NCBI GenBank assembly: GCA_047971915.1
Contig: JBKEAD010000050.1
Coordinates: 1 to 48,240 of the forward strand
DNA length: 48,240 bases
Origin: Chthoniobacterales bacterium
GTDB lineage: Bacteria > Verrucomicrobiota > Verrucomicrobiia > Chthoniobacterales > JBKEAD01
Reading direction: 5' to 3'
Shown here: one piece after another, positions 14,278-45,000 of the stretch
Layout: each line of letters starts with the position of its first letter
How positions within the stretch are numbered: the first letter of the stretch is position 1
Notes under the pieces: generated by a model
What the model was told of the DNA's origin: nothing
The model's database searches: none
Seen by the model: only the letters and a program-made list of their open reading frames with translations
Program-made: the position numbers and the translations under genes

Positions 14278-16179
14278 ATGCAGTATGCCGTAGTATTTTT
14301 AATTGCTCTCGGGTTGGCGGTTTTGCAGCTTTTGCATGGGGGGATGTATTTTGCGGGGCTTGCGTTGCCGGGGTATTTTGTGATGGCTCTGGCTTGTGCG
14401 CTGAGCCTTGCGGTGTGGGTGCAGCGTGGGTATGGGAAGTCGGTGTCGGTGGCGTTTTGGTTTTGCTTGGCGGCGTTTGCGTATCTGATCTGGCGTGCGA
14501 TGGAGACGGAGGATGTGGGGGCGGCGCGGTTGCAGATGTTTTTTTTGCTGGGTGGAGCGGCGACTTTTTTGGCGGTCACGGTTGGGCTGCCGACTTGGCG
14601 GGCGCGGGCTTGGTTGGTTGCCGCGATTGTCGTGCTGGCTGTTTTGCAGATGGGGGTTGGGATCTGGCAGGGCGCGCATGAGGGGGCGAGGCCGTTTCCG
14701 TGGGCTTCCGGAATTTTGCGGGAGTGGTATGATGGGCGTTTCGGGGTGGGGCGGCGTGGTGGGTTGTTTTTAAATCCGAATCAATTGGCGTGGTTGCTGA
14801 ATATTGCCGGGATGTTTTGTTTTGGTTGGGCGGTGTGGAGTCGGTCGCGGATTTTTTTGCGAGTGGTGAGTGTGGTGGCGGGGTTGGCTTTGCTGAGTTC
14901 GGTGATGTTGTTGACGGTGAGTCGTGGCGGACTGGTGGCGGGTGCGGCGGGGTTGGTATGTTTTGCGGCGATTTCGCTTTTAATTATTTTGCGTCGTGCT
15001 TCGTTGAGGCGTTGGGTGGCTGGGGCGTTTCTTTTGATGTTGTTTGGGGTCGTTGTGTTTGCGCTGATGAAGCGGTTTGAGTCGGATTGGGCTTTGCAGG
15101 CGCGCTTGGATGGTTCGGATATTTATGTTCGCGAGCAGTTTATGGAGGCGGCACTGCGACAGGCTCAGCTAGAACCTTTGCTGGGAATGGGTGCGGGGAG
15201 TTATGAGTCGTATTTTGGACGTTACCGGAAGCGTGGTTTGAACTTGGGTGAGGCTTATTTTACACATAATGACTGGCTGCAACTCGTGGCGGAGTATGGG
15301 GTGCTGGGGTTGTTTGCAGTTTCTTTGTCAGGTGGCGTTTTGTTGTTTACCGGACTTGTTGTGCTTTTGAGAAAGACGGGGGAGGGGGATTCGGCGAAAT
15401 TACCTTTTGGAACGGACTTGGCAATTTTGGTTGGTGGTATTTCTGCTTTGGCGACGATGGTGGCGCATGGGTTTGTCGATTTTAATATGCAGGTTCCGGC
15501 GAATGGCTTGTTGGCGATTGCGGTGGCAGGTTTGGTTTTGCCGATTTTTGAGGTGCCGCGGCGTTTTAATACGTTAGCTGCGTATTTTAATATGGGCGGG
15601 GTGGGGCTTGTGGTTGGGGTGGTGTGTTTTTTATTATTTGAAGTGGAGTATCGTCATCTGCCGGGAGAGATTTGGTGTTTGCGGGGTGTGAATGCGCAGG
15701 TTGCAGGGAAGTCGCGGGAGGCGCACACGGCTGCCGAAGTGGCTTTGAAATTGGATCAATCGAATAGTCGTGCATGGCAATTACTTGGTGATTCCGGTCT
15801 TGCGTTGGCTTTTTATCCGATGCCCTATGAGACGCGCGATTTATTATTTCGTCAGAGTTACCAAGCTTTTCGGATGGCGGCGATGTTGCAACCCAGCCAA
15901 AAATTATATTGGTTTAAATCGGGAGAAGCGCTTGCGCGTATGGGGCGGGGAGGTCAGGCCGATCTTTTTTTTAAGACGGTTGCTGCGGCTGAACTGGGGA
16001 GAGGGGAGGTTTGGCTTTACTTGGGTGCTGCTGCTGAAATGGAGGGTAAGTATGATACGGCTTATCGCTACTATCGTGTTGCTGCGCGGCTCTCGGGCTA
16101 TCAGACCTTTGCTCATAGGAGGTTGCGCTTGCTTGATAATGCCCGTAAAAAAAATCTTCTTTCGGTGGGAGTGTATTAG
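14278..16179 (+). CDS. O-antigen ligase/Wzy_C-family membrane protein with C-terminal TPR-like region
   Basis: GLFLNPNQLA, TVSRGG, GMGAGSY, THNDWLQLVAEYGVLG and HGFVDFNMQVPAN. Many TM helices. Confidence 0.88.
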   Translation: MQYAVVFLIALGLAVLQLLHGGMYFAGLALPGYFVMALACALSLAVWVQRGYGKSVSVAFWFCLAAFAYLIWRAMETEDVGAARLQMFFLLGGAATFLAVTVGLPTWRARAWLVAAIVVLAVLQMGVGIWQGAHEGARPFPWASGILREWYDGRFGVGRRGGLFLNPNQLAWLLNIAGMFCFGWAVWSRSRIFLRVVSVVAGLALLSSVMLLTVSRGGLVAGAAGLVCFAAISLLIILRRASLRRWVAGAFLLMLFGVVVFALMKRFESDWALQARLDGSDIYVREQFMEAALRQAQLEPLLGMGAGSYESYFGRYRKRGLNLGEAYFTHNDWLQLVAEYGVLGLFAVSLSGGVLLFTGLVVLLRKTGEGDSAKLPFGTDLAILVGGISALATMVAHGFVDFNMQVPANGLLAIAVAGLVLPIFEVPRRFNTLAAYFNMGGVGLVVGVVCFLLFEVEYRHLPGEIWCLRGVNAQVAGKSREAHTAAEVALKLDQSNSRAWQLLGDSGLALAFYPMPYETRDLLFRQSYQAFRMAAMLQPSQKLYWFKSGEALARMGRGGQADLFFKTVAAAELGRGEVWLYLGAAAEMEGKYDTAYRYYRVAARLSGYQTFAHRRLRLLDNARKKNLLSVGVY

Positions 16180-16399
16180 GGTGGCTCAAGAAGGGCACTT
16201 GCGGTGTTTCAATAAACTTTCAGCAATTCATCCTGTAGCTTGTATTAATGTAAAATTTATTTAACATGTAAAGTAATCCTGTGCACCGATAACTTTTCTG
16301 TGAGAAAAAGATTGCAAAGAGGGAGTGGATCGATTCTCTTTGTGAGGACATAAATTGATCCAATAGGATACCACCGTTATTTCCTTTCATTCACTATCT

Positions 16400-17722
16400 A
16401 TGAAAACTTTAAATAAAATCGCATTTTCACTAATCCTCACGGGCTTGGGCACGACTGGCTCCTTTGCTCAGATGTTCTCAGTAGCACCGATCGGGGATCC
16501 TGAGTTGGACGTAGCCGAAGCATTAACAAGAGGCGGAGCTGATACCGTGGAGTATGCGCCGGATGGAAGCGGAGGAGAAGATACGGCTACGAGTGATGGA
16601 GGTTCGGTTTTTCCTTTATCGTTTTTCACGAACAAGCCATTTCGCGTCACTTTGTCTGTTCGCGAAGGTTTCGATGACAACGTAAATGCAAGCCATGAAA
16701 ATCGTCATAGCAGCTTTTATACAAATTTTGCGGCGGGCATTAACTACTCCTTTGGTTCTCCTCGTTTGAAGCTTTCCACCAACTTGTCCGGCGGGTTGAC
16801 TTACTACTACAGTAAGAATGCGAATCGGAAAACGAACCTTTCCGGTTTGTGGAATCTTTCAGCGGTTTATTCGGTGACGCCTCGAATGACTCTTTCGATG
16901 GGAACGAGCACGGGCTACTACTCGCAGCCAACTATTTCTAATCCCGGCACATCTTACGTGGGCGATCAAAGTTACTTTTCGACCAATACGTATTTTTCTC
17001 TGAACTATCAATGGACAGAGCGTTTTTCCACCACGACGGGTTATCGTTTGGGAGCAATCGTTTATTCGGGTAATCGTGTGAATGATGGTCTTGGAAATAT
17101 TTCTCAGACGATTAGTCAGTCTTTCAATTTTCACCTATGGCCCACGACGACGCTTGTGGCGGAGTATCGAGTTAATCCGGTGACTTACTTTTCAACCGAT
17201 CAGGATAGCTGGGGAAATTATTTCTTGCTGGGTTTCAATCACACCTTCAATCCTCGTTCTACATGGACGCTTCGGGCTGGTGCCGAACTTAGATTTATGG
17301 ATAGGGTAAACAGTGATAGTAAGACCTACATAGGTCCTTACATCGAGAGTGTTTTCAGATATCAACTCAATCCACGTTCCAGCGTTGCATGGACCTTGCG
17401 GTATGGAACAGAAAATTCTGGTGTATTTAATATTACCCAGTCTCAGACCTTCCGCACGGGTTTGAATATCGACTACGCCATCACTTCTAAATTATCTGCA
17501 AGTGCTGGTGCGTATTACACGGTTAGTTATTACAACCAACGAAGCACCGTCAATCCGTTTTATCAGAACGCATTTGAGGGCTTTGTCGGGCTACGTTATT
17601 CTCTAAATCAGAGAGTTTCATTTTCGGCAGGTTATCGCTACACGGGCGTTTTAGCACCGGAGCAAGATCAACGTAACTATTATCGCAACGTAGTTTACAT
17701 TGGCGTAAATACCAATTTCTAG
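16400..17722 (+). CDS. outer-membrane beta-barrel protein associated with polysaccharide export
   Basis: Signal peptide, alternating aromatic beta-strands, GFDDNV motif and C-terminal YIGVNTNF (BAM signal Phe). Lies upstream of wzc/wza. Confidence 0.8.
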   Translation: MKTLNKIAFSLILTGLGTTGSFAQMFSVAPIGDPELDVAEALTRGGADTVEYAPDGSGGEDTATSDGGSVFPLSFFTNKPFRVTLSVREGFDDNVNASHENRHSSFYTNFAAGINYSFGSPRLKLSTNLSGGLTYYYSKNANRKTNLSGLWNLSAVYSVTPRMTLSMGTSTGYYSQPTISNPGTSYVGDQSYFSTNTYFSLNYQWTERFSTTTGYRLGAIVYSGNRVNDGLGNISQTISQSFNFHLWPTTTLVAEYRVNPVTYFSTDQDSWGNYFLLGFNHTFNPRSTWTLRAGAELRFMDRVNSDSKTYIGPYIESVFRYQLNPRSSVAWTLRYGTENSGVFNITQSQTFRTGLNIDYAITSKLSASAGAYYTVSYYNQRSTVNPFYQNAFEGFVGLRYSLNQRVSFSAGYRYTGVLAPEQDQRNYYRNVVYIGVNTNF

Positions 17723-17829
17723 GTCTGCTTTAAAAATAAGTCGATGTTTGCTGGATAGCTTCCAAGAGCGAGTAGTCCGAGGAAGCAGGAGATGCTTTCG
17801 GCTAATTTAAGTTACCAAATATTATATAC

Positions 17830-20010
17830 ATGGAAAATCCGTCTGCTGAGTTAAAACTCCACTTTTTAGATTACTTAAGGATACTGCGAATTCGCTTGCC
17901 CTTCATCGTTCTTATCTTTTTCACAGTCGTCATTTTAGCGGGAGTGGCCACTTATATAAGCCCAAAGAAATATGAGTCGGCGGCAACGATGGAAATTCGG
18001 CGTTCAGATTATTTTATGCGCATTTTTGGTGGCAAGACGAATGATCGTGCCGATCCTAGATTTTTGATGACACAGTCTGAGATCATTCAACGCAAAGAAA
18101 TGCTCGCCCCGGTAGTTCAGAAGTTGGATCTGGTTAAGCGTTGGTCAGCGGATGGTATTACAAATCCGGATCAGGCTTATGCCCGTTTGAAGGGGATGAT
18201 TTCGTTGAGCGATGTTAGAAATACAGATCTTGTCGAGGTAAAGGCCGAGGGACTTGACCCCAAAGAAGCTGCGGAAATCGCAAATGCCGTCACCGCTCGC
18301 TATATTGAAAACCGTAAACAAGTTGTTGAGGAGTGGGTTACGAAGTCGCTTTCTTCAATCGAGGAAGAGGTGCGCGAGCGTCGAGCCGAGGCCAAGGCTC
18401 TTCAAGCTAAAGCAGAAGCCGTTCGAGCAAAGTATGGGATTATTGACCTTTTGGGTGACGATGTCGAGGCTTCCGTTCAACCGGGTAAGCAGACTTATAT
18501 CGAAACGGAGCAAAAGGTCGCCGCAGAAAAAATAAGGATTAGCGGTATGGCGGATCGCTTAAAAGAACTTGATAAGTTGAGTGCGGAGCAAATCATGCTG
18601 GGCAGTAATACCCTCCAAATTCAGGATCCGACGATTAACCGCATTTTGCCTCTGTATCAGCAGGCCCATGCGACGGAGACGCGACTACTGCACTCAGGAC
18701 TTGGTCCAAACCATCCACAAGTGCGCTCATCGACTGCTGAACGCGAACTCTACTACAACCAGCTTATCGATCAAATCCAGTCGCTTCGCAAGAGTCTCGA
18801 AGCTAACCTTACGTTAGCACGCAGCTCACTTGCTTCTATGGAGGGACAACTGGAGGGGCTGCGCACTGATCAACAACTGGATCGTGAGCAAGAGGCTGAA
18901 TACATAGATATTAAAAACGAGTATATCCGTGCAAAGCAATTGCGCGATGCTGCGGAGACACGTATTGCCACAGAAAGGATGCAGTATGGTATGCCGATGG
19001 ACCCTGCTAGAATTTGGGAATATGCTGAACCAAGGTTCCGCCCCGTGAGTCCAAATATTTTGTTCAACATGATTTTTGGCGTGTTGGGTGGAATTGTTTT
19101 GGGAATTGGATTCGCCTTTTTCATGGAGTATATGGACACCAGTGTCAAAACGCTTGAAGAAATTGAAGCCTATCTTCAAGTTCCTGTTTTGGCAATCGTT
19201 CCTAAAGACATCCATTTGCTCTTAAATGCTGGTGACGATTGTGTCGATGCTGAGGCTTACCGAATTTTGCGGACAAATATTGAATTTAACCGTCGCTCCG
19301 CTGAGGCTAATAGCATTACGGTGGTCAGCGGTGGTGCTGGTGAGGGTAAATCAACAACAATCTGTAATTTGGCCTACATTTTTGCACGCGGTGGCTATAA
19401 TACACTTGTTGTCGATGCTGACTTGCGCCGACCTTCTCAACATCGTCTTTTTAAAGTAGAGAATGACCGTGGAATTACAGATTATTTGAGCGGTCAAATG
19501 TCTGTGGAAGAGGTGGTCCGAACAACTGATGTAGAAAATCTGTATTTTATCTCAAGCGGTCCCCAGGCTCGTGATGCCGTTGGTTTGTTAAACTCAAAAC
19601 AAACAAGATCCTTGCTGTCAGAACTCAAGACGCGCTTTGATATTGTGCTTATTGATTCTCCGCCGATTCTTGGTGTGAGTGATGGTGCTATTCTCGCGAG
19701 CTTTGTGGACCTTACCATGCTTATTGTGCAGCATCGTCGTTTCCCACGCAGCATGCTGAAGCGTGTGAAACAGGCCGTCCTAAATGCTGGTGGAAAAATT
19801 GTTGGTGTTGTCTTGAACAATGTCGATGTTCGCCATGATAGACAGTATGAATACTATACGGGTTACTACAGTTACTATGCAGAAAATTCGGATGGCTCCG
19901 GAAAAACAAAAAAACGGAAAAAGCATAAACCCTATGCAGGATCTCCTGTTGGCGAAGAAGACAAAGGATCAAGGGAATCTAAACCCGTTTACCAAGATGA
20001 AGAATATTAA
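17830..20010 (+). CDS. wzc: polysaccharide co-polymerase / BY-kinase
   Basis: Two TM helices flanking a coiled-coil region, EAYRILRTNI, Walker A GAGEGKST, VDADLRRP, LIDSPP and a Tyr-rich tail YEYYTGYYSYY. Confidence 0.92.
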   Translation: MENPSAELKLHFLDYLRILRIRLPFIVLIFFTVVILAGVATYISPKKYESAATMEIRRSDYFMRIFGGKTNDRADPRFLMTQSEIIQRKEMLAPVVQKLDLVKRWSADGITNPDQAYARLKGMISLSDVRNTDLVEVKAEGLDPKEAAEIANAVTARYIENRKQVVEEWVTKSLSSIEEEVRERRAEAKALQAKAEAVRAKYGIIDLLGDDVEASVQPGKQTYIETEQKVAAEKIRISGMADRLKELDKLSAEQIMLGSNTLQIQDPTINRILPLYQQAHATETRLLHSGLGPNHPQVRSSTAERELYYNQLIDQIQSLRKSLEANLTLARSSLASMEGQLEGLRTDQQLDREQEAEYIDIKNEYIRAKQLRDAAETRIATERMQYGMPMDPARIWEYAEPRFRPVSPNILFNMIFGVLGGIVLGIGFAFFMEYMDTSVKTLEEIEAYLQVPVLAIVPKDIHLLLNAGDDCVDAEAYRILRTNIEFNRRSAEANSITVVSGGAGEGKSTTICNLAYIFARGGYNTLVVDADLRRPSQHRLFKVENDRGITDYLSGQMSVEEVVRTTDVENLYFISSGPQARDAVGLLNSKQTRSLLSELKTRFDIVLIDSPPILGVSDGAILASFVDLTMLIVQHRRFPRSMLKRVKQAVLNAGGKIVGVVLNNVDVRHDRQYEYYTGYYSYYAENSDGSGKTKKRKKHKPYAGSPVGEEDKGSRESKPVYQDEEY

Positions 20011-20698
20011 TTACTCGTTCCTTTGGGCTTTTGTCGTCCTGTTTGTTGCGGCATCGCTTACCTTAGATGCAAAGGCTCAGATTCATAATAATAATGCCGG
20101 TGCTTCCGGTAGTGTGCCTCGTGCTCAGGCGGTGAGCCCTCCGTCAGCTGTTCCTGTCGGTCAAGCCGCTGCACCCCCAGCGGGTTTTGCCGATAATAAT
20201 GGCTCTGCGGTTCCTTTACGTGCGGGTGATGTTATTTACGTGCGTATTGCAGGGGTTCCTATGGCAGAAACTCAATTTTTTACAGGAACTTATACAGTCG
20301 ATCCGGAGGGGTATGTAAATATGCCTTATATTGGTAATGTAAAAGCTGCCGGTCTGCTGCAAAATGAGCTTCAAGATCTCATGCAGAAAACGTATAAGGA
20401 GCGCGGAATTTATACAAACCCGTCCATTATGATAAACTTCCCTGGGGTTTCGCGCTTTGTAAACGTGGAGGGGGATGTCCGCCGACCAAATCGTATAGGC
20501 TTCACTCCCGATATGACTTTGATGAGTGCTCTGATTGCTGCGGGTGGATTGACGGATTTTGCGGACCAGAAAAAGATCCAATTAATCCGCGATGGCAAAA
20601 GTCAATTTTACGATATTCGAAAAATTCGTCGCAACCCTACTTTAGATGTCCCCGTGAAACCTGGCGATATGATTTTCGTCCCTCGGAGTTTCTTTTAA
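19997..20698 (+). CDS. polysaccharide export protein (short Wza/OPX: Poly_export + SLBB)
   Basis: LRAGDVIYV...YTVDPEGYVNMPYIGNVKAAGL, VEGDVRRP, ALIAAGG and VKPGDMIFVP. Start MKNINYS overlaps the wzc end. Confidence 0.87.
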   Translation: MKNINYSFLWAFVVLFVAASLTLDAKAQIHNNNAGASGSVPRAQAVSPPSAVPVGQAAAPPAGFADNNGSAVPLRAGDVIYVRIAGVPMAETQFFTGTYTVDPEGYVNMPYIGNVKAAGLLQNELQDLMQKTYKERGIYTNPSIMINFPGVSRFVNVEGDVRRPNRIGFTPDMTLMSALIAAGGLTDFADQKKIQLIRDGKSQFYDIRKIRRNPTLDVPVKPGDMIFVPRSFF

Positions 20699-20743
20699 TA
20701 TCGACGGCTCGGTCGCTTGGTCGGATTGACGAAATCCCTGCGG
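20699..20743 (-). repeat. degenerate copy of the intergenic element at 21455-21499
   Basis: Reverse complement CCGCAGGGATTTCGTCAATCCGACCAAGCGACCGAGCCGTCGATA matches 21455-21499 at 32/45 positions without gaps. Confidence 0.55.
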
Positions 20744-20774
20744 CTCGTTTCTCTCCGACATTTTTTCTTTTGGA

Positions 20775-21347
20775 TTAATCCTTAATTTTTACCGGGGTGC
20801 CGACATCGGCGTATTTAAAAAATAACTTAGCGGTTTCCTCCGGTAAACGCACACCGCCATCCGCCGCACGATATCCCGGAACCTCTCCCGCATATAATCC
20901 CTGCCCGGCTTCATTAAAGACCAAATAATTCGTCATTGGTAATTCCCGAAAAGTCGCCCCACTCGGCAGGGAATCCAATTCCAAATTCACCCCCGAAGCA
21001 ATCACATGCCCCTCGGAATTCACAAATTCACCATACTGGGACGTTTTCATCTCATTATGCTTTTGTAAGATTTTAAAATCGCCCTTCGGCGTTGGTGCAT
21101 CTGTCCGCCCTGAAGAAATTGGTGAATCTACGGCCACCTCATCTTTCACGAGTAAAAGCGCACGTTGTTTCTCAAGCAGAATCACAAGGCTCACATTTTC
21201 GTTAGTGGCACGCTCCAAAACACGTGGTATAACTTTCACCTTCTCCTGTTCAACCACAGGAAAAGGAGCCACGGTGTCTTCTCCCACGGCAATAGAAATA
21301 TTCACCGCATTCACTAGAAAAAGTAAAAATAGAAAAAAAATCTTCAC
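20775..21347 (-). CDS. L,D-transpeptidase (YkuD) family protein with degenerate catalytic motif
   Basis: Signal peptide, SPISSGR...TPKGDFKILQK, PMTNYL, and GLYAGEVPGYRAADGGVRLP in place of the usual HAG...ASHGCIRL. Confidence 0.82.
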   Translation of the reverse strand: MKIFFLFLLFLVNAVNISIAVGEDTVAPFPVVEQEKVKVIPRVLERATNENVSLVILLEKQRALLLVKDEVAVDSPISSGRTDAPTPKGDFKILQKHNEMKTSQYGEFVNSEGHVIASGVNLELDSLPSGATFRELPMTNYLVFNEAGQGLYAGEVPGYRAADGGVRLPEETAKLFFKYADVGTPVKIKD

Positions 21348-21403: not shown

Positions 21404-21588
21404 AATCGTCCTAACGCCACAATACCAAGATGAAAAATGTTTGAGGTAAATAAACCGCAGGTATCTCGCTGATCTGGCAAGACGACCGAGCTGGCGGTAG
21501 CCAAGCTACCGACTGCGAGGGCAGTGCTGCCAGTCGGTGAGAGAACAAGGTTTATCTCAAATATTTTTCATTTTGGTATAAGACGGCT
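21404..21588 (+). ncRNA. putative structured non-coding RNA (6S-like long hairpin or repeat-derived RNA)
   Basis: 29-bp stem 21422-21450/21551-21579 with 3 G.U pairs and no mismatches, an internal bubble, a second stem 21464-21479/21528-21542 and two terminal hairpins. Confidence 0.55.
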
Positions 21589-21607: not shown

Positions 21608-23464
21608 ATGCGCCTTGTTATTTTTTATCTCTTTTTATCGTTTGCCAGTAGCTTTGCGGCCAAGGAAGAATTTATATCTCCGGGCCCCTCTCCGCCCATT
21701 GCCAAGAATATAGAGATCACGGTTTATGTTGGAGAGACGGTTGATATTCCGCTCCAAGCACTGGGCCGCGCTGCCGACCAAAGCAAATTCCTTCTCCGCA
21801 GCTATCCCAAATTTGGAAATTTGGGCGAAATCATTCCTGCTAAACCCGGGCATGCCACCATCAATTACGAGCACCGAAAAGGGGGAGCAGTAGGAATCAC
21901 CGACTCCTTTACCTACGCCGTGCAAAGTCACGATTCCCCCGTTTCGGCACCGGGAAAAGTGCTGATTCGTATCATCGAGAGACCACCTGTTTTTGAAATT
22001 CCGAAAGTCGTTGATTTTGGCGAGGTGATAAGTGGTCGTTCAAAAAAGAAAATTTTCACCATCTCAAACCAAGGCGGCGGAGTGATCTCGGGTCAAATTA
22101 AAGTTTTTCCTCCGTGGTATCTTACGGCTCCCCCTTACTACCATCTCGGTGCCGGCCAAAAGCAACAAATCGAAGTCGAAATACGCCCCGAAGAAACAGG
22201 CGATTTTTCCGAGCATATTTTCTTTTCGCATGATGAAAAAATTCTTCTTCCTGTAACGGCGAAAGCAGTCGCCCCTTTTCATCTCGAAACAGGCAAAATT
22301 TTTCTCTCGCATCCTTTAAGCCAAAATTCCGAAAAAGAAAATTCGTCCGAAACAAAAAGTCAGACAACGCTAAAAGTAACGAATAACTTAGCCGAAACGC
22401 TCCGTCTCAAGCTCAATGTTCCTACTTTTATCCTAGCCGAAAACAAATTTGACATCCCCGCAAAAAAAACAATTTTCATCCCCCTGCACGCCCAATTTTC
22501 GGCACTGAAAGGCGGAGACGGACTCATTACTTTAGAGGCGGATGATTACTCCCGAACGATTCCGGTCACACTTTACCATGCTCCGGAAGCCTATACGGTC
22601 GTGCCCAGCCAAGGCGTTGATTTTGGCACTTTGCTTGCAGGCGAAAGCCGCTCGGCCACCATCAGGCTCTCCAACATCGGGGGGAGCGTTATTTCCTTTG
22701 ATTTAAAATTTCCGGATGAAATTCAAGTCGTCGGCGGCAATCGGCTCACTCTAGATGTTGGCGAAAGTGGTGAAAAAAACATCAGTTTTATTTCTCAAAA
22801 AACGGGAACTTTTCTCGATAAGCTGGAGATAGTCACCGAGAAATCGAGTAAATCAATCCCGATCACCGCGGAAATTTTATCAAAAGCAGGTGAACGCGAC
22901 CCACTCCCGCTCACAAAAATTACCACAGACGGCATTCAACAGCCTCTCCCCACGGATGAGGTTAAAAATAATCTCACTCTTGCAAGACCAACTGGCCCTC
23001 AAATTCCTATTGCCGCTTCTTTTGATAAACTCCAAATTCTGAGCCGATCCGAAACGGCAATCCGAATTGCGTGGAAAGACTCCGGTGAATCTGATGTTAG
23101 CTATCAAGTTCTTGCGCGAGAAATCGGACTAAACGAAAATGGGAGGGTTACGCAGACATGGAAAATTTTGCCAAATGTTTTTATAAATCGGCAGGACGAT
23201 TACTGGATGGCGGACATCACTGGCCTCCACGTCGGCCAAGCTCTAAATATCCGCATCAATACACTTGGTGAAGATGGAAAGCCAATCTCTCTTTCGCCGC
23301 CGTTTAACATTAGCAGCCTTTCTCCACCGCCACGAACCCCTTTTCCAACAAACTGGTTTCTTGCCATCGTCCTCGTCGTGGTCGCTATCGTCTGGATCAA
23401 ATACCACAGAAAAAAACGGCACGAAATGGACCGTATCGAATTTGATAAAATCACTAAACAGTAG
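21608..23464 (+). CDS. secreted multi-Ig-like (ASH/choice-of-anchor D-like plus FN3-like) protein with C-terminal membrane anchor
   Basis: Signal peptide, DSFTYAV, two VDFG...(TISNQGG/RLSNIGG) repeats, an FN3-like segment (IRIAW...YQV...ITGL), a Pro-rich linker, then a TM helix and a basic tail. Confidence 0.7.
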   Translation: MRLVIFYLFLSFASSFAAKEEFISPGPSPPIAKNIEITVYVGETVDIPLQALGRAADQSKFLLRSYPKFGNLGEIIPAKPGHATINYEHRKGGAVGITDSFTYAVQSHDSPVSAPGKVLIRIIERPPVFEIPKVVDFGEVISGRSKKKIFTISNQGGGVISGQIKVFPPWYLTAPPYYHLGAGQKQQIEVEIRPEETGDFSEHIFFSHDEKILLPVTAKAVAPFHLETGKIFLSHPLSQNSEKENSSETKSQTTLKVTNNLAETLRLKLNVPTFILAENKFDIPAKKTIFIPLHAQFSALKGGDGLITLEADDYSRTIPVTLYHAPEAYTVVPSQGVDFGTLLAGESRSATIRLSNIGGSVISFDLKFPDEIQVVGGNRLTLDVGESGEKNISFISQKTGTFLDKLEIVTEKSSKSIPITAEILSKAGERDPLPLTKITTDGIQQPLPTDEVKNNLTLARPTGPQIPIAASFDKLQILSRSETAIRIAWKDSGESDVSYQVLAREIGLNENGRVTQTWKILPNVFINRQDDYWMADITGLHVGQALNIRINTLGEDGKPISLSPPFNISSLSPPPRTPFPTNWFLAIVLVVVAIVWIKYHRKKRHEMDRIEFDKITKQ

Positions 23465-42070: not shown

Positions 42071-45000
42071 ATGAGCGAATCTAATAATCGTGACATTTTT
42101 GACGAAGAACAGTCCGTCGGCTTTGACGAGGTCGGAATCACCGTAGCCTCTCCCGATGCCATTCGTAGTTGGTCCTCCGGCGAAGTAAAAAATCCCGAAA
42201 CAATCAACTACCGAACCTTTAAACCCGAAAAGGGAGGTTTGTTTTGCGAACGTATCTTTGGACCAACCAAAGACTGGGAATGTTCTTGCGGAAAATACAA
42301 ACGCATCAAATACAAAGGCGTTACTTGCGACCGTTGCGGCGTTGAAGTGACCCTCTCCCGCGTGCGTCGCGAGCGGGTCGGCCATATCGAGCTGGCGGTT
42401 CCTGTCTCGCATATTTGGTTTTACAAATGCATGCCCTCCCGCATCGGGTTGATGCTCGACATGACATCTCGCCAGTTAGAGCGCGTCATCTACTACGAAG
42501 ACTATATCGTTATCGACCCCGGCCACACCGGCCTTATACAGGGCCAGCTCCTCACCGAACTCGAATACCGCGAAGCCGAAGAGCAGTGGGGAGAAACTTT
42601 CACCGCTGGCATGGGCGCAGAAGCGATTCAAAAACTCCTCGAACAAATCGATCTCGCTAAACTCGCCGTCGAACTCGAAGAGCAAATGGGAGCAACGCGC
42701 AGCAAACAGCTTCGCAAAAAATTGGCAAAACGCCTGAAACTTGCTCAAGGTTTCGCTAGCTCCAAAAGCCGCCCCGAATGGATGATTGTGAATGTTCTTC
42801 CGGTCATCCCTCCCGATTTGCGCCCACTCGTCCCACTCGAAGGCGGACGCTTCGCGACTTCGGATTTGAACGACCTTTACCGTCGCGTCATCAACCGAAA
42901 CAATCGCCTCCGCACCCTGCTACAGCTAAAGACGCCCGAAGTCATTATTCGAAATGAGAAACGGATGCTGCAAGAAGCTGTCGATGCCCTCTTTGACAAT
43001 GGCCGCCACGGTCGCGCTGTCACCGGTGCCGCCAACCGTCCGCTCAAATCCCTCAGCGACATGCTCAAGGGTAAAGGCGGACGTTTCCGTCAAAACCTTC
43101 TCGGAAAACGCGTGGACTACTCGGGACGCTCCGTTATCGTTATCGGCCCCGAGCTAAAGCTCAACCAATGCGGACTTCCGAAAAAAATGGCACTCGTCCT
43201 TTTCGAGCCATTTATCATTCGCCGCTTAAAAGAACTCGGCTACGTCCACACTGTTCGCAGTGCAAAAAAAATGATCGAGGCCCAAAAGCCCGAAGTCTGG
43301 GATATTCTCGAAGAGGTGACCAAAGGACACCCCGTTCTTTTGAACCGTGCGCCGACGCTTCACCGACTCTCCATCCAGGCCTTCGAACCAATCCTTATCG
43401 AAGGTGAGGCCATTCGCGTGCACCCACTCGTCTGCACCGCTTACAATGCCGACTTCGATGGTGACCAAATGGCCGTGCACGTCCCGCTCTCTGTCGAAGC
43501 GCAGATGGAAGCCCGTACGCTCATGTTGGCTCCGAATAATATTTTCGGACCATCGAACGGTAAGCCCATCACAACACCGTCTCAAGACATCCCGCTGGGT
43601 TGCTATTACGTAACCGCGGAACCTCGCGGTAGCGATGCCGATACCGATAAGCATATCCCGATTTTTGAAAACGAGATCGAGGTTGAACTCGCACTTTCCG
43701 AAAAATCGATTCGCAAACACCAGTGGATCCATTTGAAAAATCCCGACCGTGGCACGCAGACCGTTTTCGGCGACGCCGAGGCAAGAACGCTGCAAACCAC
43801 TCCGGGCCGTGTGCTTTTCAACACCATCTGGCCCAAAGAACTCGGCTTTTACAACAAAGTCGTCAGCAAAAAGCAGTTGAGTAACATTATCTGGGAAACC
43901 TACCAAGCCGTCGGCCAAGACGGAACGGTAAAGACCCTCGATCGCTTGAAAGAACTTGGTTTCCAGCAGGCTACGGCTGCCGGTATCTCCATCGGTATTG
44001 CGGACATGATCATCCCCGACGAGAAAAAACCGCTTGTTGCCAGTGCCTTTAAAGAAGTTGGCGATGTAGAAAAACAATACCGCCGAGGCATCATCACCGA
44101 TGGTGAACGCAAAAACAAAGTGCAAGACATCTGGACGCATACCGGTGAAGAAATCACCGCCGCTCTTTTCCGCACACTGGAGTACAACGAAGGCAAGAGC
44201 GACATGAACCCGGTTTACATCATGGTGGACTCCGGTGCTCGTGGTAACCGCACGCAGATCAAACAGCTTGGCGGAATGCGCGGCCTCATGGCCAAGCCCT
44301 CCGGCGAGATTATCGAAAAGCCTATCTTATCCAACTTCCGCGAAGGCCTCACGGTGCTGGAATACTTCATCTCCACTCACGGTGCCCGTAAAGGACTTGC
44401 CGATACCGCGTTGAAAACAGCCGACTCCGGCTATCTCACGCGTAAACTCGTGGATGCTGCCCAGGATGTCATTGTAAACGAACCCGATTGTGGAACGATT
44501 AACGGCATTACAGTAGGTCCGATTTACGAGGGCGACGAAGAAGTCGTCAGCCTCTCTGCCCGCATCATTGGTCGCACGAGCTGCGAAACCGTTAAAGAAC
44601 CTGTTTCGGGAACCGTGGTCATAAATGCAGGCGATCTCATCGACGAAAAATCCGCCGAAGCACTCGAAACGCTCGGTGTCGAACGCCTCAAAATTCGCTC
44701 CGCCCTTACTTGCGAAACCAAGCGAGGTGTTTGTGCAAAATGTTACGGACGCAACCTCGCTACGGGGCACCCCGTCAAGCTCGGTGAGGCAGTCGGCATC
44801 ATTGCCGCACAATCCATCGGCGAACCCGGCACTCAGCTTACGATGCGAACCTTCCACGTTGGTGGAACGGCGAGTCAGACCTTTAAACAGCCCGTCATCA
44901 AGGCGAAAAATAATGGTAAAGTCCGCTTCAACGATCTCCGAACCGTTAAAACCGTAGATGACAACTACGTCGTCCTCAACAAAAACGGCTTCATTACCAT

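Follow-up and report, generated by a model that had tools for sequence, protein, structure and literature searches.

A 156-bp hairpin repeat of a Chthoniobacterales genome, most likely a miniature inverted-repeat transposable element, and its conserved structured core

Bacterial MITEs are short (<200 bp) and non-coding and carry terminal inverted repeats (TIRs), as set out in PMC2229807; the same review describes IS630-dependent MITEs, RUP of pneumococcus and Correia/NEMIS of Neisseria, as intergenic elements of 100–200 bp with TIRs, a terminal TA and a long stem-loop, for which mobilisation in trans is inferred. ERIC (IRU, RU-1) is likewise an intergenic long hairpin, of 127 bp, whose ends are of the TA type (TATAC in the copies examined from E. 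coli). According to PMC2229807 and PMC10969869, ERIC transcripts are reportedly processed by RNase E and Correia transcripts by RNase III, and orientation matters for ERIC. Strand-polar hairpins are also formed by REP/REPIN sequences, which go with RAYT proteins (Y1 HUH), and 6S RNA (RF00013) is similar in length and rod shape to the element described here. This element lies in a window of 48,240 nt (the whole stretch of DNA that was analysed, from contig JBKEAD010000050.1) belonging to a Chthoniobacterales genome of 2.47 Mb (G000; 261 contigs, 92% complete), for which a same-genus genome, also fragmented (G001), served as comparison.

A sequence-only reading of the window had marked positions 21404–21588 as a structured RNA candidate, had noted a likeness to 6S RNA that did not obviously fit, and had offered a new ncRNA, a leader of the gene at 21608 or a MITE-derived RNA as its identity. 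The real limits are 21423–21578. The element is 156 bp long and non-coding, 22 of the 24 terminal positions form Watson-Crick pairs and the other 2 form G.U pairs, which corresponds to a MITE in size and TIRs. It sits between divergent genes, YkuD (−) and Ig-like (+), with its 3' end 29 nt upstream of ATG 21608. The features are as follows.

21423–21578, + (the core strand): full-length copy of the repeat, most likely a MITE, 156 bp, ends TACC...GGTA; from the family copies and the empty site in G001
21423–21445, +: left TIR, 23 bp (24 with the flanking A); from the TIR word and terminal pairing
21556–21578, −: right TIR; from the TIR word and terminal pairing
21420–21422, +: left copy of the presumed 3-bp target duplication, CAA, which differs from TAA at one base; from the sequence and the TNA rule of a sister subfamily
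21579–21581, +: right copy of the presumed target duplication, TAA, matched in the alignment by the one TAA at the G001 empty site
21464–21542, +: conserved structured core with a covarying inner stem; from alignment, pairing and covariation
21478–21484, +: AA bulge motif of the core, CAAGGCG in the family and CAAGACG in the window copy
21486–21491 with 21515–21520, +: tandem G.A of the core; from the core alignment
21495–21511, +: apical hairpin of the core; from pair probabilities
21522–21527, +: 3' motif of the core, CAACGC in the family and CAGTGC in the window copy
20698–20774, −: 5' half only of a second copy of the same family, starting immediately behind the YkuD stop codon, TAA (nhmmer E 2e-10)
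20775–21347, −: flanking gene, L,D-transpeptidase with a YkuD domain
21608–23464, +: flanking gene, Ig-like-domain protein, with ATG 21608 matching the start of the G001 orthologue

Since ATG 21608 aligns with the start of the G001 orthologue, the longer ORF that opens within the element, at GTG 21524, probably does not mark the true start of the gene. A weak sigma70-like site (9/12) crosses the right end of the element; 2 such sites were found against 0.7 ± 0.9 expected, a number not above chance, and a terminator search at the element found none. Lying between divergent genes, the copy may affect the leader of 21608 or act as a weak promoter. The half copy at 20698–20774 has different neighbours in G001. 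Elsewhere, the window holds a polysaccharide export cluster (14278–20698, +: genes for an O-antigen ligase-like protein, a 440-aa product that matches no Pfam family, an ATPase resembling a chain-length regulator, and an export lipoprotein) and a short tRNA-Asp of 68 nt called by ARAGORN (44921–44988, −), which Rfam does not recover at the gathering score; another tRNA-Asp of G000 lies on contig C30.

BLAST and iterated nhmmer searches (E up to 0.01) found 15 family matches on 14 contigs of G000, of which 4 are full-length and the remainder truncated or internally deleted. Further copies are present at other loci in G001, and the two genomes thus show the multi-copy dispersal of a MITE. Pairwise identity among the five full copies (four from G000, one from G001) is 76.6–86.1%, and the window copy is 79–86% identical to its siblings. 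BLAST across 40 relatives gave convincing matches only in G001; a covariance model built from the five full copies had hits in 12 of 151 genomes from the order, the counts for G063 and G035 being 13–15. Of the 9 loci given by the TIR scan of GTDB contigs, 8 are chance matches in sequence that looks coding; the ninth is a partial copy, which lies in a Chthoniobacterales record and is not counted as independent. The full-element pattern had 0 matches in metagenome and viral contigs, a second TIR scan of metagenome contigs gave 7 loci, none of them an element, and no match in the plasmid search covered more than 25% of the query.

The G001 orthologues of the YkuD and Ig-like genes (73% and 62% identity) are adjacent, and the gap between them aligns on both sides of a ~160-bp deletion that covers the element and keeps a single TAA, at a divergence (YkuD protein 73% identity) too great for a base-exact junction. 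The orthologous site is filled in G000 and empty in G001, as is found with MITEs; formally, with two genomes compared, G001 may instead have lost the element. A second filled/empty comparison, in genus g13, yielded no clean empty site. The orthologous gap without the element rules out an ancestral leader or a conserved RNA gene, and this absence together with ~15 copies argues for a likely arrival as a mini-transposon rather than for a new RNA gene. The G001 gaps that hold partial copies (L021, L025) were synteny breaks in 2 out of 2 informative cases versus 4 out of 24 control gaps, numbers too small for a conclusion. The 16-nt TIR word matched 35 times in G000, where shuffles gave 1–8 matches; about 20 of these are solo, without the rest of the element, and are perhaps what is left of former copies.

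Genus g13 has a young sister subfamily, its copies 91–100% identical, with the same TACC...GGTA ends as the window element. A perfect 3-bp TNA repeat was counted by hand at 11 of its 13 paired ends, and the middle base, which the search pattern did not fix, agrees in 12 of 13. Among the full G000 and G001 copies the repeat is perfect in 1 of 5 and has one mismatch in 4 of 5, the middle base agreeing in 4 of 5. The flanks of the window copy, CAA and TAA, are not identical; to judge from the sequence they are likely a 3-bp target duplication. Another g13 subfamily has TA|TACC ends. Genomes of this genus are rich in nested and composite MITEs (L181, L185, L193–L205), one of them nested with a TAA|TAA repeat (L201), and the interiors of some may resemble Rickettsia palindromic elements.

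The mobilising transposase was sought in G000, G001 and up to 401 relatives. No IS630, Y1, ISL2-type, IS4/IS5 or ISAzo13 transposase with the ends of the window family was found in this set, a result to be read against the fragmented assemblies of G000 and G001, nor did scanning GTDB, metagenome and viral contigs for the TIRs bring up a transposase bearing those ends. In particular, the IS630 ends of G001 differ from those of the window family, tblastn of G000 gave no IS630 remnant of note, neither the ISL2-type, IS4/IS5 and ISAzo13 loci nor 29 DUF4096 (IS5) loci have TACC ends, and no transposase is attached to 20 solo ends of subfamily B. Full IS630 elements are present in relatives: G144 has one of ~1.15 kb with a 373-aa frame, whose ends match those of G144's own core-carrying MITEs, and full elements with TA|TACC ends were found in G311 (4 copies) and G443. 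G040 has an IS630 3' fragment with an end like that of g13 subfamily A (a partial end match), of which no viral relatives were found. These IS630 elements with matching or TA|TACC ends make an IS630-like enzyme the likeliest class for the window family on present sequence data; TNA/TWA 3-bp duplications were seen at IS5/IS1031-type loci with GAG ends and TA at IS630 loci, so that this class is assigned only tentatively.

The + strand of the marked region folds as a long rod at −87 kcal/mol (z −10.75) and the − strand at −68.2 kcal/mol (z −5.53), both better than all 200 shuffles. Compared on the + strand, no other full-length copy of the four in G000 is as stable as the one in the window (−82.6 kcal/mol). 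Positions 21422–21450 and 21551–21579 are complementary at 29 out of 29 positions, with three G.U pairs on the + strand (21429, 21439 and 21446), just as had been noticed from the letters; as a stem of 29 consecutive pairs it holds less well, its last pairs being weak (probability falling from 0.86 to 0.09). Beyond it, the asymmetric bubble of 13 versus 8 nt in the sequence-only reading gave way to a 4-nt bulge that migrates, and ACC/GGU within the bubble pair at 0.90–0.98, likewise in the family structure; there is therefore no open 6S-like bubble. The inner stem was recovered as proposed (21464–21479 with 21528–21542). One of the two proposed apical hairpins, 21495–21511, has pair probabilities of 0.98–1.0. 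The other, 21512–21525, has a probability of 0.0: all 5 of its pairs are possible in the window copy only (the other four full-length copies allow 1–2 of 5), and the segment pairs with the 5' arm instead. With 0 branch points the family model is an unbranched rod, and the branched apex is lost.

The middle of the element, the core, is common to repeats of at least 8 end types, including a second G000 family (C51), which share this middle and not their ends; a search with the core model, run on 151 genomes from the whole phylum, gave matches in 5, among them G000. The covariation among homologues that would be expected of a selected fold is present here. When 17 cores were aligned with MAFFT without structural information, 89.3% of cells were paired and 16 out of 23 pairs showed compensatory change, values whose significance (0 of 500 shuffles reached them; slid controls, 33–50%) is overstated owing to kinship among the 17 cores, from which the structure itself had been selected. 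Compensatory changes can also come from palindrome-templated repair. The most constant features are unpaired ones, CAAGGCG and CAACGC (two AA bulges) and the tandem G.A, which is closed on both sides in 13 of the 17 cores; the window copy has three changes in these motifs. In one chimera, L185, the left and right ends belong to different subfamilies and the joint lies within the core. Among 80 listed of at least 121 viral loci with the core pattern, 78 were distinct, mostly chance matches, and 0 had TIRs; of those listed, 12 had an extended stem against 1.6 expected, six of the 12 belonging to one gene family. The start of contig C51 (L155, G000:C51:1-1675, core at 64–175, −) holds a second MITE-like hairpin with the same core and unrelated TIRs.

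We found no description in the accessible literature of the window family or of a core common to several MITE end types, although supplementary MITE catalogues (e.g. that of PMC11602168) could list such elements; the core motif strings do not occur in the available part of the PMC2188519 text. We take the family to be a new MITE family with a conserved structured module that is itself probably unreported. The MITE of PMC9769881, described there as IS982-derived, is not the window family. In Rfam, nothing reaches the gathering score at the locus, matches at E up to 10 being chance matches only, and at ten loci of relatives no family covers the core. An attC site was dropped: there is no cassette array, and the ends do not fit what we take to be the attC consensus.

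The G.U pairs on one strand had been taken as a sign of selection on an RNA fold. With the strand of each element defined by its core, the first 24 terminal pairs of 18 elements contain 31 G.U versus 6 A.C (14 versus 4 in six copies of the G000/G001 family), counts that are inflated by shared inherited pairs, as with the related cores above, and that include one row off register by a base. The core strand folds better in 17 of 18 elements. The G.U excess, the better-folding strand and the core features support selection on a strand-specific fold as a property of the family, and in that part the proposal stands. The same strand folds better both as RNA and as DNA, so polarity does not prove RNA or separate it from single-stranded DNA.

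Orientation relative to genes was also analysed, using crude ORF calls and leaving out L467 and L473 (two opposed cores) and L445, L448 and L472 (no match). Two families (f1 and f13) have 39 copies, 22 of which lie between co-directional genes, and in 20 of these 22 the core is antisense. Pfam confirmed both flanks in 14 antisense cases and 1 sense case among 21 gaps submitted, the confirmed neighbours including some of the rplO-secY, nusA-infB, nusB-ftsY and cdsA-dxr type. No antisense bias was seen in families f7 and f8 (21 copies; 3 antisense versus 4 sense) or for ERIC in E. coli (5 antisense versus 4 sense in 9 co-directional gaps). With respect to replication, 5 out of 24 cores are on the leading strand, 10 on the lagging strand and 9 unclear; replication direction explains orientation less well than transcription does.

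ERIC, which we take to be the same as MITEEc1, shares motifs with the core: AAGGCG occurs on its 5' side and AACGC on its 3' side. All 12 E. coli ERIC-primer loci have both motifs, in fuzzy form and in the same order, versus 5% of control windows, the motifs having been written after seeing ERIC; in 12 of 12 copies the strand with AAGGCG first folds better. The verrucomicrobial core model found its best match in E. coli K-12 at a locus of the ERIC2 primer (sequence from PMC3696847; E 0.01) and its second at an ERIC-like locus (E 0.16), both weak, and it gave no score at the aceF-lpd ERIC at E up to 1. Rfam V_AS5 has a weak match at one E. coli ERIC-like locus (30.3 bits versus a cut-off of 96). 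ERIC differs in length (127 versus 156 bp), in its unrelated TIR and apex, and in its TA rather than 3-bp TNA duplication; the window element has neither an ERIC primer sequence, which the 12 E. coli loci have, nor the ERIC 127-bp consensus. Kinship with ERIC, listed as MITEEc1_IS630 in PMC11602168, thus appears partial from sequence comparison: the same plan, not the same family.

The window family resembles the IS630-dependent MITEs in that sister families share ends with full IS630 elements; it differs in having no partner IS found, a TNA duplication, an interior not derived from a transposase and a core found across end types. REP/REPIN sequences differ from it by its long TIRs and target duplication. 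G000 and G001 have 6 and 7 Y1-transposase matches, respectively (RAYT-like), and no family match lies beside the Y1 gene at any of the 6 loci examined out of these 13. At one Y1 locus of G000 (L064, C142:3641-6883), three GTAG-tagged REP-like palindromes (local 1153–1176 and 1815–1875) surround a Y1 transposase domain that forms one 525-aa open frame with a cation-efflux-like protein, one repeat being inside the frame. In L065–L069 (G000, G001) the codons of the Y1 LKQRFxxWYN motif resemble the right TIR of the MITE, probably by coincidence.

We consider it highly probable that the window hairpin is a copy of a 156-bp non-coding TIR repeat, most likely a non-autonomous MITE that entered a TAA through the action in trans of a DDE transposase, probably one of the IS630-like class; among the identities first offered, the MITE option has on its side the copy number, the TIRs and the empty site. 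The transposase would bind both TIRs, cut, and insert the element at a TNA that is duplicated in the process, and the window copy, given its identity to siblings and its changed motifs, would be old and decaying. Selection would preserve the core in its folded, single-stranded form; this form is most likely RNA, which would arise by read-through or from promoters in the TIRs and which a host protein or a ribonuclease would recognise. RNA is favoured because ERIC and Correia transcripts are reportedly RNase-processed and because the sense orientation is avoided in operons here; harm done by the RNA form to host mRNA would explain the template-strand position of the core within operons of these lineages. 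Cores and ends would likely be reshuffled via recombination inside the shared core. That the copy is, or has become, a stand-alone ncRNA (a second 6S-like RNA or an sRNA) or a regulatory leader of 21608 seems very improbable to us: it is the most stable full G000 copy on the + strand, it ends shortly before ATG 21608 and it has the weak sigma70-like site at its right end, yet it has no credible Rfam match (RF00013 gives none at E up to 10), no open bubble and no terminator, it is one of many copies whose position is not conserved, its orthologous site is empty, and the genome has its own 6S (C23:740-918, 50.3 bits versus a cut-off of 46.4) and its only SRP match (RF00169, C222:4531-4625, 55 bits) elsewhere.

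Two other accounts keep the MITE and change the meaning of its core. It could act as folded single-stranded DNA or through double-stranded sites, for example as a strand-specific hairpin for a host or HUH/RAYT protein at replication that aids copying, with no RNA role. CAAGGC and CAACGC are indeed near-direct repeats, the better fold of the same strand as DNA (17/18 elements) suits such a role, the core strand is mostly off the operon mRNAs in f1 and f13, 10 of the 15 clear calls are on the lagging-type strand and Y1 genes are at hand in both genomes. Nevertheless, the bias with respect to replication is slight (5 versus 10) and below the transcription-linked bias, which spans both replication orientations, the element was found at 0 of the 6 examined Y1 loci, and its ends and target duplication are DDE-like rather than REP-like, so that we regard this account as rather unlikely. 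Lower still we place a functionless core, an old passenger in all these MITEs that stayed palindromic via template switching and became polar through strand-biased mutation. Deamination on the strand that is more often single-stranded can yield a G.U excess, and copies do decay, many being truncated and the window copy having three motif changes; however, conservation is higher at the unpaired bases (AA bulges, tandem G.A) than in the stems, where turnover is compensatory, the TIRs are wholly replaced, and polarity tracks the orientation of the element itself, not that of neighbouring genes. Returning to a MITE with a selected core, we tentatively put forward, as a possibility short of our favoured expectation, that the core is a self-standing strand-specific RNA (or single-stranded DNA) module with two-fold symmetric AA bulges and tandem G.A, which would ride on unrelated MITE ends across phyla, including ERIC, owing to a conserved host factor, drive the spread of MITEs and alter the fate of sense mRNA, hence its antisense position in housekeeping operons (secY, nusA-infB, dxr) of some lineages.

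The locus itself is an ordinary mini-transposon insertion, and its annotation as an ncRNA gene is unwarranted. MITE interiors are usually deemed decayed or genus-specific filler; here a folded core is kept while the ends, and therefore probably the mobilising enzymes, change. Because G144 contains both an IS630 and the MITE that goes with it, and because the orientation bias is strong, the role of the core in mobility and mRNA turnover can be tested directly. If the module is real, ERIC-type repeats, long unexplained, would gain a shared testable mechanism.
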